Virus record (IMG/VR): IMGVR_UViG_2703718792_000005
Length of the DNA stretch: 5,318 nt
From: a virus
Lineage: Duplodnaviria; Heunggongvirae; Uroviricota; Caudoviricetes
Strand: one strand, 5' to 3'
Position numbers and translations under genes: made by a program. Shown here in pieces: positions 2,031 to 5,318 of this stretch. Every line of letters begins with the position of its first letter. Position 1 is the stretch's first letter. Below the pieces are notes generated by a model. The model was not told the DNA's origin and made no database searches. It worked only from the letters and a program-made list of their open reading frames with translations.

Positions 2031-5000
2031 ATGGGTAAAGGCAGCAGTAAGGGGCATACCCCGCGCGAAGCGAAGGACAACCTGAAGTCCACGCAGTTGC
2101 TGAGTGTGATCGATGCCATCAGCGAAGGGCCGATTGAAGGTCCGGTGGATGGGTTAAAAAGCGTGCTGCTGAACAGTACGCCGGTGCTGGACAGTGAGGG
2201 GAATACCAACATCTCTGGTGTCACGGTGGTGTTCCGGGCAGGTGAGCAGGAACAGACACCGCCGGAGGGATTTGAATCCTCCGGATCCGAGACGGTGCTG
2301 GGTACGGAAGTGAAATACGACACGCCGATCACCCGGACCATCACGTCGGCAAACATCGACCGTCTGCGCCTGACCTTCGGTGTGCAGGCACTGGTGGAAA
2401 CCACCTCAAAGGGTGACAGGAATCCGTCGGAAGTCCGCCTGCTGGTTCAGATACAACGTAACGGTGGCTGGGTGACGGAAAAAGACATCACCATTAAGGG
2501 TAAAACCACTTCACAGTATCTGGCCTCGGTGGTGGTGGATAACCTGCCGCCGCGCCCGTTCAGTATCCGGATGCGCAGGATGACGCCGGACAGCACCACA
2601 GACCAGCTGCAGAACAAAACGCTCTGGTCGTCATACACCGAAATTATCGATGTGAAACAGTGCTACCCGAACACGGCACTGGTCGGCGTGCAGGTGGACT
2701 CGGAGCAGTTCGGCAGCCAGCAGGTGAGCCGTAATTATCATCTGCGCGGGCGTATTCTGCAGGTGCCGTCGAATTATAACCCGCAGACGCGGCAATACAG
2801 CGGTATCTGGGACGGAACGTTTAAACCGGCATACAGCAACAACATGGCCTGGTGTCTGTGGGATATGCTGACCCACCCGCGCTACGGCATGGGGAAACGT
2901 CTTGGTGCGGCGGATGTGGATAAATGGGCGCTGTATGTCATCGGCCAGTACTGCGATCAGTCAGTGCCGGACGGTTTTGGCGGCACGGAGCCGCGCATCA
3001 CCTGTAATGCGTACCTGACCACACAGCGCAAGGCGTGGGATGTGCTCAGTGATTTCTGCTCTGCGATGCGCTGTATGCCGGTATGGAACGGGCAGACGCT
3101 GACGTTCGTGCAGGACCGACCGTCGGATAAGGTGTGGACCTATAACCGCAGTAATGTGGTGATGCCGGATGATGGCGCGCCGTTCCGCTACAGCTTCAGC
3201 GCCCTGAAAGACCGCCATAATGCCGTTGAAGTGAACTGGACTGACCCGGATAACGGCTGGGAGACGGCAACAGAGCTTGTGGAGGACACGCAGGCCATTG
3301 CCCGTTACGGTCGTAACGTCACGAAGATGGATGCCTTTGGCTGTACCAGTCGGGGGCAGGCACACCGTGCCGGGCTGTGGCTGATTAAAACGGAGCTGCT
3401 GGAAACGCAGACCGTGGACTTCAGCGTGGGCGCAGAAGGGCTTCGCCATGTACCGGGCGATGTCATTGAAATCTGTGATGATGACTATGCGGGGATCAGC
3501 ACCGGTGGGCGTGTGCTGGCGGTGAACAGCCAGACCCGGACGCTGACGCTCGACCGTGAAATCACGCTGCCATCCTCCGGTACCACGCTGATAAGCCTGG
3601 TTGACGGAAGTGGCAATCCGGTCAGCGTGGAGGTTCAGTCCGTCACCGACGGCGTGAAGGTAAAAGTGAGCCGTGTTCCTGACGGTGTTGCTGAATACAG
3701 CGTATGGGGGCTGAAGTTGCCGACGCTGCGCCAGCGACTGTTCCGCTGCGTGAGTATCCGTGAGAACGATGACGGCACGTATGCCATCACCGCCGTGCAG
3801 CATGTACCGGAAAAAGAAGCCATCGTGGATAACGGGGCGCACTTTGACGGTGACCAGAGCGGCACAGTGAATGGTGTCACGCCGCCAGCGGTGCAGCACC
3901 TGATCGCAGAAGTCACTGCAGACAGCGGGGAATATCAGGTGCTGGCGCGCTGGGACACGCCGAAGGTGGTGAAGGGCGTGAGCTTCCTGCTCCGTCTGAC
4001 CGTAACAGCGGACGACGGCAGTGAGCGGCTGGTCAGCACGGCCCGGACGACGGAAACCACATACCGCTTCACGCAACTGGCGCCGGGGAACTACAGGCTG
4101 ACAGTCCGGGCGGTAAATGCCCGGGGGCAGCAGGGCGATCCGGCGTCGGTATCGTTCCGGATTGCCGCACCGGCAGCACCGTCGAGGATTGAGCTGACGC
4201 CGGGCTATTTTCAGGTAACCGCCACGCCGCATCTTGCGGTTTATGACCCGACGGTACAGTTTGAGTTCTGGTTCTCGGAAACGCGGATTACCGATATCAG
4301 GCAGGTTGAAACCACAGCCCGCTACCTTGGCACGGGGCTGTACTGGATAGCCGCCAGTATCAATATCAAACCGGGCCATGATTATTACTTTTATATCCGC
4401 AGTGTGAACACCGTTGGCAAATCGGCATTCGTGGAGGCTGTTGGTCAGCCGAGTGATGATGCATCCGGTTATCTGGATTTTTTCAAAGGCGAGATAGGGA
4501 AAACCCATCTGGCTCAGGAGCTGTGGACGCAGATTGATAACGGTCAGCTTGCGCCTGACCTGGCTGAAATCAGGACGTCCATTACGGATGTCAGCAATGA
4601 AATCACACAGACCGTCAATAAGAAACTGGAAGACCAGAGTGCGGCAATTCAGCAGATACAGAAGGTTCAGGTTGATACAAATAATAACCTGAACAGCATG
4701 TGGGCAGTGAAGCTGCAGCAGATGCAGGACGGACGCCTCTATATTGCGGGTATCGGTGCCGGTATTGAGAACACCCCTGACGGCATGCAGAGTCAGGTGC
4801 TGCTGGCGGCAGACAGGATTGCGATGATTAATCCTGCAAATGGCAACACAAAGCCGATGTTTGTTGGTCAGGGTGATCAGATATTCATGAACGAAGTGTT
4901 CCTGAAGTATCTGACGGCTCCTGCCATTACCAGTGGCGGTAATCCTCCGGCATTTTCCCTGACGCCGGACGGGCGACTGACGGCGAAAAATGCGGATATC

Positions 5001-5318
5001 AGTGGCAGTGTGAATGCGAACTCAGGGACGCTCAACAACGTCACGATAAATGAGAACTGTCAGATTAAGGGGAAACTGTCCGCCAACCAGATTGAAGGCG
5101 ATATTGTCAAAACGGTCAGCAAGTCTTTCCCCCGCACGAGCACTTATGCCAGCGGCACCATTACGGTCACGATTAGTGATGATCAGAAGTTTGACCGACA
5201 GGTCATGATACCGCCAGTGTTATTCCGCGGTGGTAAGCATGAGAATTTCAACAGTAATAACCAACAGTCATACTGGTATTCAACCTGCCGATTAAGAGTG
5301 ACCCGCAATGGTCAGGAG
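2031..5318 (+). CDS. J: Tail tip central fibre / host specificity protein J (lambda gpJ-like), 3'-truncated by window edge (1096 codons present, no stop in window)
   Basis: Open frame from ATG 2031 to the window end reads [54 protein letters not shown]..., near-identical to recalled lambda gpJ (1132 aa) for roughly the first 820 residues. GGAG Shine-Dalgarno at 2019-2022, 8 nt upstream. Not listed in the ORF track because there is no in-frame stop within the window. The C-terminal third diverges from lambda. Confidence 0.96.

Follow-up and report, generated by a model that had tools for sequence, protein, structure and literature searches.

The tail-tip locus and its J gene

The DNA considered here (hereafter the window, meaning the whole stretch of 5,318 nucleotides) belongs to the tailed-phage record IMGVR_UViG_2703718792_000005 of IMG/VR, and includes L, K, I and J, the tail-tip genes of a lambdoid prophage. 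Our subject is its J gene, which follows phage lambda J closely as far as position 4438 and leaves it abruptly at 4439. The divergent remainder consists of two modules, a shaft with upper prism and a receptor-binding tip, which assort independently in nature, and the tip is near-identical to one deposited in complex with the porin OmpC. The genes lie as follows:

To 676: 3' part of L
682-1425: K
1323-1970: I
2031-5318: J, from an ATG at 2031, with the frame still open at the window end (1,096 codons, zero stops)

J occupies the place of the lambda-type tip attachment protein, downstream of L, K and I, and its Pfam matches all exceed the curated cut-offs: FNIII-A_GpJ (residues 86-207), Phage-tail_3 (330-498), Ig_J (610-714), Ig_J_second (716-818), Phage_Tail_Tip (872-1000) and Ig_GpJ_C (from 1037). 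Their order is that of a J protein: hub, two fibronectin type III/immunoglobulin-like (FNIII/Ig) domains, fibre and C-terminal Ig-like domain. The last match covers profile positions 16-68 of 135, as J stops at residue 1,096 of an expected 1,160; the full-length protein is expected to end in ...VVVMKKSTAGISIS. Because residues 1-805 are 97% identical to those of lambda gpJ, for which structures are available, J would form a trimer that builds the tail tip together with gpL, gpI and gpM. Read along the gene, its parts are:

2031-4438, plus strand: J residues 1-803, hub domains and two FNIII/Ig domains, lambda-like, embedded in the tail-tip complex
4439-4697, plus strand: J residues 804-889, linker and alpha-helical shaft, the "long" allele
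4698-4935, plus strand: J residues 890-968, upper beta-prism (central straight fibre), which travels with the long shaft allele
4936-5029, plus strand: J residues 969-1000, conserved base of the prism, a homology patch at which receptor-binding domains are swapped
5030-5318, plus strand: J residues 1001-1096, A8-type (OmpC-binding) receptor-binding domain, truncated where the window ends, about 64 residues short

The break with lambda J

Compared with the lambda reference (NC_001416), 784 of the first 805 residues of J are the same (97.4%), the underlying DNA (2031-4438) is 96.3% identical, and the stretch directly before the break, 4350-4438, matches at 89 of 89 bases. From 4439 on identity to lambda falls abruptly and then varies along the gene:

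4439-4697: 41% nucleotide identity to lambda, with 84 extra bases (28 codons, in-frame) in the window
4698-4935: 70%
4936-5029: 89%
5030-5318: 51%

A maximum chi-square (MaxChi) scan against lambda placed the best single breakpoint at 4497, with a chi-square value of 754 as against at most 17 in 300 permutations. A preliminary description of the window, prepared by inspection of its letters, had proposed that J is lambda-like almost residue for residue up to about 4440 and that a step change follows; the protein strings it quoted are present in the translation, and comparison with lambda J segment by segment reveals the step, identity being far from uniform. Given the sharp break at 4439 and the MaxChi result, its coordinate was therefore good to within a few bases.

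The nature of this joint is given by structural work on lambda. Cryo-electron microscopy of Ur-lambda resolved residues 1-807 of gpJ, its rigid part fixed in the tip complex (PMC12617516), and the lambda gpJ shaft comprises residues 809-861 (PMC11101478); the shaft in the window was placed through alignment to the latter. Codon 804, at which J leaves lambda, falls where the rigid, tip-bound part ends and the shaft begins, and from these structural limits together with the placement of the Pfam domains it follows that the joint at 4440 separates the second FNIII domain from the alpha-helical shaft, and so the part of J embedded in the tip from the free fibre. The extra 28 residues fall within the shaft, which is longer by that amount than lambda's 809-861. 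A single-sequence AlphaFold2 model of residues 790-1096, used as weak support only since its mean predicted local distance difference test score was poor (38), has helices at about residues 812-884. The first divergent stretch past 4439 is thus shaft and not receptor-binding domain.

Base composition proved a poorer guide. J has a guanine-plus-cytosine (GC) content of 0.588 upstream of 4440 and 0.502 downstream, and the last 879 bases are the lowest in the window (other non-overlapping stretches of 879 bases are at or above 0.552), so that the GC shift noted in the preliminary description is real. The fall itself, from 0.66-0.68 to 0.53, sits at about 4200, which is 240 bases upstream of the identity break and in sequence still about 90% identical to lambda; it recurs more weakly in lambda J (0.583 to 0.541) and equally in phage 21 J (0.586 to 0.491). 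Since the drop precedes the joint and is present in lambda and phage 21, the AT-richness is no evidence for the junction, and we rejected GC content as a sign of foreign origin. The two AT-rich stretches that had been cited as examples are AT-rich indeed (36% GC each), though they lie at 4665-4700 and 5253-5285, 3 bases and 1 base from the positions first given.

Two modules that assort independently

To describe the divergent region we aligned the 3' ends of J from lambda, 434, 21, cdtI, 640R1, PhiR70_1, a Stx1 phage (Stx1_8100) and a prophage carrying cdt genes (the cdt prophage, described below). The shaft (4439-4697) is 96-99.6% identical in DNA to those of 21, cdtI, 640R1 and PhiR70_1 and 41% identical to those of lambda and 434; the upper prism (4698-4935) is 93-94% identical to the same four phages and 70% identical to lambda, and the two segments taken together (4439-4935) stand at 41-71% to lambda and 434. 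The prism base (4936-5029) is 79-98% identical to all eight references. Beyond it the affinities change: PhiR70_1, Stx1_8100 and the cdt prophage match the tip (5030-5318) at 94.5-99.7% (the last at 99.7%), phage 21 at 74%, 640R1 at 62%, and lambda, 434 and cdtI at 51-53%. The parts are found in all combinations; cdtI, for instance, joins the long shaft to a 434-like tip, and 434 joins lambda's shaft to that same tip. Against phage 21, MaxChi gave a significant best breakpoint at 4922.

The same pattern is found at the scale of the database. A 39-base marker of the window's tip matched more than 120 IMG/VR contigs, of which 103 had enough upstream sequence for analysis (the marker had no match among species-representative genomes). 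About 59 of these 103 loci carry lambda's short shaft and prism (86-98% identical to lambda in the examples checked), about 27 a Stx1-phage type, and about 10 the long type of the window; lambda's short shaft thus accompanies the tip on most contigs, which points to free recombination between the two modules. Homology upstream of the tip ends between 4890 and 5040, at the conserved motif of the prism base, in 94 of the 103. In keeping with independent assortment, one gpI allele adjoins J proteins of 1,137, 1,159, 1,160 and 1,161 residues; the exact gpI protein of the window is widespread on contigs (304 index blocks), and the eight loci returned are at most 98.0% identical to the window. A 59-base sequence specific to the window had no match in IMG/VR or among species-representative genomes.

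The region past 4440 is therefore made of two modules, the shaft with upper prism and the receptor-binding tip. The preliminary description had taken all of it for one horizontally exchanged host-range cassette beginning at the 4440 joint. J is indeed a recombinant mosaic whose distal part has been exchanged horizontally; the distal part is two modules rather than one cassette, and the boundary of the host-range determinant lies at 4890-5040, some 450-600 bases beyond the joint. We think it quite likely that J as a whole is assembled from three interchangeable pieces: a lambda-like part (residues 1-803), the long shaft and upper prism (to about residue 968), and an A8-type tip (from about residues 969-1001).

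The receptor of the tip

A sequence search of the PDB, done with a full-length relative of J, matched a construct named "A8 gpJ 713" (entries 9wca and 9wcb), which joins a foreign tip to lambda gpJ, the latter running from residue 713 to the end of the prism; nearly every residue of that tip equals the full-length relative, and entry 9wcb also holds three OmpC chains. Brodel et al. (2024, Nature; PMC11338833) described A8 as the C-terminal part of a natural Escherichia coli phage gpJ fused to lambda gpJ, obtained among variants picked on a lamB-deleted recipient, and reported that it recognises OmpC: lamB/ompC double mutants that have been complemented with ompC receive DNA from A8 particles and not from those of wild-type lambda, and A8 works on most of 23 OmpC variants. 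The A8 DNA published in the supplement of that study contains the 3' sequence of the window, and the engineered fusion point lies in the conserved patch at the prism base (4936-5029).

Over the visible part of the tip, 92 of 95 residues are identical between the window and A8 (the differences being S1037N, T1038S and T1047R). The full-length relative, which is near-identical to A8 to the last residue, has four substitutions only in the tip region, and within the last 64 residues the relative that is 99.7% identical to the window differs from A8 at one. Because its tip is near-identical to that of A8, the J protein of the window is predicted to bind OmpC. Similarity to the LamB-binding tip of lambda (residues about 1001-1132) is 51% in DNA and about 44% in protein, with insertions and deletions, which does not place the tip with the LamB type, and the receptor is very probably not LamB. 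The preliminary description had proposed that the phage probably uses a different receptor or a LamB variant; a different receptor is supported by the A8 tip, whose receptor is OmpC and to which the visible tip is about 97% identical.

The alternative, that the tip binds LamB, OmpF or another porin because its specificity has been altered by the three substitutions or by the 64 residues beyond the window, deserves weighing. J tips can switch receptor with few mutations (work cited by Ge and Wang describes lambda gaining the use of OmpF through point mutations; PMC11101478), and the A8 tip differs from that of a second chimera, 1A2, in the OmpC alleles accepted. Several points do weigh against the assignment to OmpC: the last 64 codons of J lie past the window end, so that about 40% of the receptor-binding domain is known through a relative; three residues differ from A8, and small changes in J tips are known to shift receptor or allele range; and we found no paper describing 9wca or 9wcb, their reading as a complex resting on chain names and sequences. 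Our search of the literature on the receptors of PhiR70_1, Chlobot and 640R1 likewise gave nothing usable. Against a different porin stand the 92 of 95 visible residues shared with A8 and the near-identity of the closest full-length relative to A8 throughout, and against LamB in particular the low protein identity to lambda's tip, and we regard a receptor other than OmpC as unlikely.

OmpC is used by more than one kind of J tip. The chimera 1A2 accepts a narrower set of OmpC alleles than A8 (Brodel et al. 2024, PMC11338833), and we observed that it carries a tip of the 640R1 type. The 434 tip, which is only 45% identical in protein to the window's, is cited as OmpC-using (PMC11101478), so that tips of unrelated appearance use OmpC; no fewer than three dissimilar tip types found in nature (A8 and the window, 1A2 and 640R1, and 434) are reported as OmpC users, with different allele ranges.

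Origin of the mosaic

We hypothesize, as the simplest mechanism, that homologous recombination brought the pieces of J together from lambdoid phages that were co-resident or co-infecting, with crossovers that would have fallen in two short patches conserved across J genes, 4350-4438 and 4936-5029. As substrate for such exchange, E. coli genomes with any match to the region hold a median of 3 copies of it and up to 14. The proximal piece (residues 1-803) would form the hub of the tip and both FNIII domains and make the contacts with other tip proteins; the trimeric tip would dock on the OmpC porin trimer instead of LamB; and, as lambda suggests by analogy, a signal would next travel along the prism and shaft and open the tail. 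Two considerations restrain this reconstruction: the direction and order of the recombination events are not recoverable, both shaft alleles being common, and the best match to the window is only 98.3% identical.

A rival history would have one donor and one event, the whole of 4440 to the end of J arriving from one other phage as a single host-range cassette. PhiR70_1, Chlobot and the cdt prophage do share the combination of shaft and tip at 94-99.7%, and the immediate ancestor of the window's J may have inherited or received both parts together. Yet the long shaft accompanies the window's tip at only about 10 of the 103 loci, 21, cdtI and 640R1 carry the same shaft with three other tips, and a second significant breakpoint is found against phage 21 at 4922; a single transfer, to which we give a small chance, fails to capture the behaviour of the parts across the population.

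Two further explanations fare worse. Divergence in place, through diversifying selection or targeted hypermutation (for example by a diversity-generating retroelement), would suit the distal concentration of the differences, tail-fibre tips being frequent targets of such systems. It is highly improbable, given that the segments are 93-99.6% identical to those of unrelated lambdoid phages with differing flanks and that the length difference is an in-frame 84 bases; moreover, the window holds no pair of template and variable repeats (its longest repeat is 28 bases at 71%), a reverse transcriptase outside the window being possible. Finally, E. coli genomes carry several J paralogues (median 3) and such repeats can mis-assemble in drafts, and still the chance that two J copies of a single genome were fused at the junction by faulty assembly or sequencing is negligible, since the junctions are colinear and 99-100% identical over 2564-5318 in the closed chromosome NZ_CP027550 and in isolated phages.

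The mosaic that we describe is ordinary lambdoid module shuffling, of a kind long known, and its tip belongs to a type that has already been characterised experimentally.

Comparison with related J genes

The likeness to lambda gpJ (PDB 8IYK, 8XCJ and 8XCK) comprises the place of the gene after L, K and I, the Pfam architecture and the conserved prism base, and the path by which the tip would act through prism and shaft to trigger opening of the FNIII domains is presumably conserved as well. The differences are a shaft 28 residues longer and unrelated in DNA (41%), an upper prism at 70%, and a tip at about 44% in protein. In the upper prism, the equivalent of lambda F924 falls at J residue 952 (4884-4886), where the phenylalanine is retained in the motif QIFMNE; in lambda, F924 of J triggers the Gifsy-1 abortive-infection nuclease HepS, and F924S is a phage escape mutation (PMC13043305).

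A8 is an engineered fusion that sets this type of tip on the short shaft and prism of lambda, whereas in the window the long shaft belongs to a natural gene; counterparts of A8 that occur in nature, with a lambda-type shaft and the window's tip, are the commonest arrangement in IMG/VR. Phage 21 J shares the long shaft and upper prism (93-96%) and has a tip at 74% in DNA and 82% in protein, and phage 434 J shares lambda's short shaft; taken together, the two display the same swapping of modules.

The nearest relative is the cdt-I converting prophage of E. coli 2015C-4136CT1 (NZ_CP027550), with 98.3% identity across the window as a whole and 99.7% across 4440-5318. Its J has the same combination of three modules and 1,160 residues, is followed by lom and stf, and the prophage adjoins ssrA; the J genes of PhiR70_1 and Chlobot show that combination too, at 95% identity. 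Identity to the cdt prophage drops to 84-95% at 1-100, 700-975 and 1800-2600, with 99-100% elsewhere (MaxChi breakpoint 2564). These patches of lower identity therefore mark further recombination joints in the left half of the window, which is a distinct mosaic of the same parts. The genes lom and stf would lie past J, outside the window, and are seen in relatives only. In the nearest relatives, cdtABC (encoding cytolethal distending toxin type I) follows lom and stf (at 14151-16250 in locus L007 and 16849-18949 in locus L014), and relatives with cdtABC are integrated beside ssrA/smpB. The window may come from a toxin-converting prophage of the cdt type.

Neighbouring genes and other features

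The K frame stays open for 247 residues, encodes JAB/MPN and NlpC/P60 domains and shares 103 bases with I; the reference record of phage lambda annotates K at 199 residues only, whereas the records of phages 21 and 434 take the longer start. Gene I contains a second mosaic patch at 1426-1800, which is 53-79% identical to lambda and phage 21 and matches the cdt prophage at about 100%. The patch encodes the hydrophobic middle of gpI, which is rich in glycine and alanine and 8 residues shorter than in lambda; both ends of gpI are conserved.

Between I and J lies a hairpin, AAACCGCC-tgct-GGCGGTTT, at 1990-2009. The homologous site is an annotated terminator in the records of phages 21 and 434, and the hairpin was not called by a consensus terminator scan of the window. 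On the minus strand, at 2961-4508, an open reading frame of 515 residues runs antisense to the GC-rich part of J, inside a stop-free stretch of 686 residues. Across nine J genes the antisense open stretch varies from 331 to 705 residues and is broken in the more divergent ones, and the frame looks like a compositional shadow rather than a gene.

Occurrence and significance

Of 5,426 complete E. coli genomes, 4,660 contain DNA like that of the window, as do 271 phage records. Within those complete genomes the alleles of J are distributed as follows:

Long shaft (window type): 3,550 of 5,426 genomes
Short shaft (lambda type): 2,567 of 5,426 genomes
Window-type tip, at 90% identity or more: about 1,479 records
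Lambda LamB-type tip, all at 99% identity or more: 98 of 5,426 genomes, the listed examples being laboratory K-12, B and DE3 strains

From the tip counts, 98 as against about 1,479, lambda is thus the unusual form, and the divergent end of J is an ordinary natural form: lambda is the exception and not the baseline.

The remaining point of interest is whether the two shaft lengths differ in function. The difference of 28 residues amounts to four heptads; if helical, these residues would span very roughly 4 nm. We suggest, as a speculation that we hold possible though unlikely, that the long and short alleles are not neutral spacers and that they may set a stand-off distance or the energy barrier to tail opening and be kept by selection; as one example of such selection, the alleles might match surface layers of differing thickness. 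As far as we searched the literature, we found no prior description of a functional role for two shaft lengths.

The domain map may also aid engineers of lambda-derived delivery particles by marking two joints, the boundary between the second FNIII domain and the shaft and the conserved base of the prism, the latter being the joint at which the published A8 chimera was fused; all combinations of these modules already occur naturally. For the prophage itself, host range is to be predicted from OmpC and from the OmpC allele of its hosts, and not from LamB. More generally, lambda is a poor reference for the J genes of natural lambdoid phages, as its LamB-binding tip is nearly confined to laboratory strains, and the tip of the window is among the commonest in E. 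coli.

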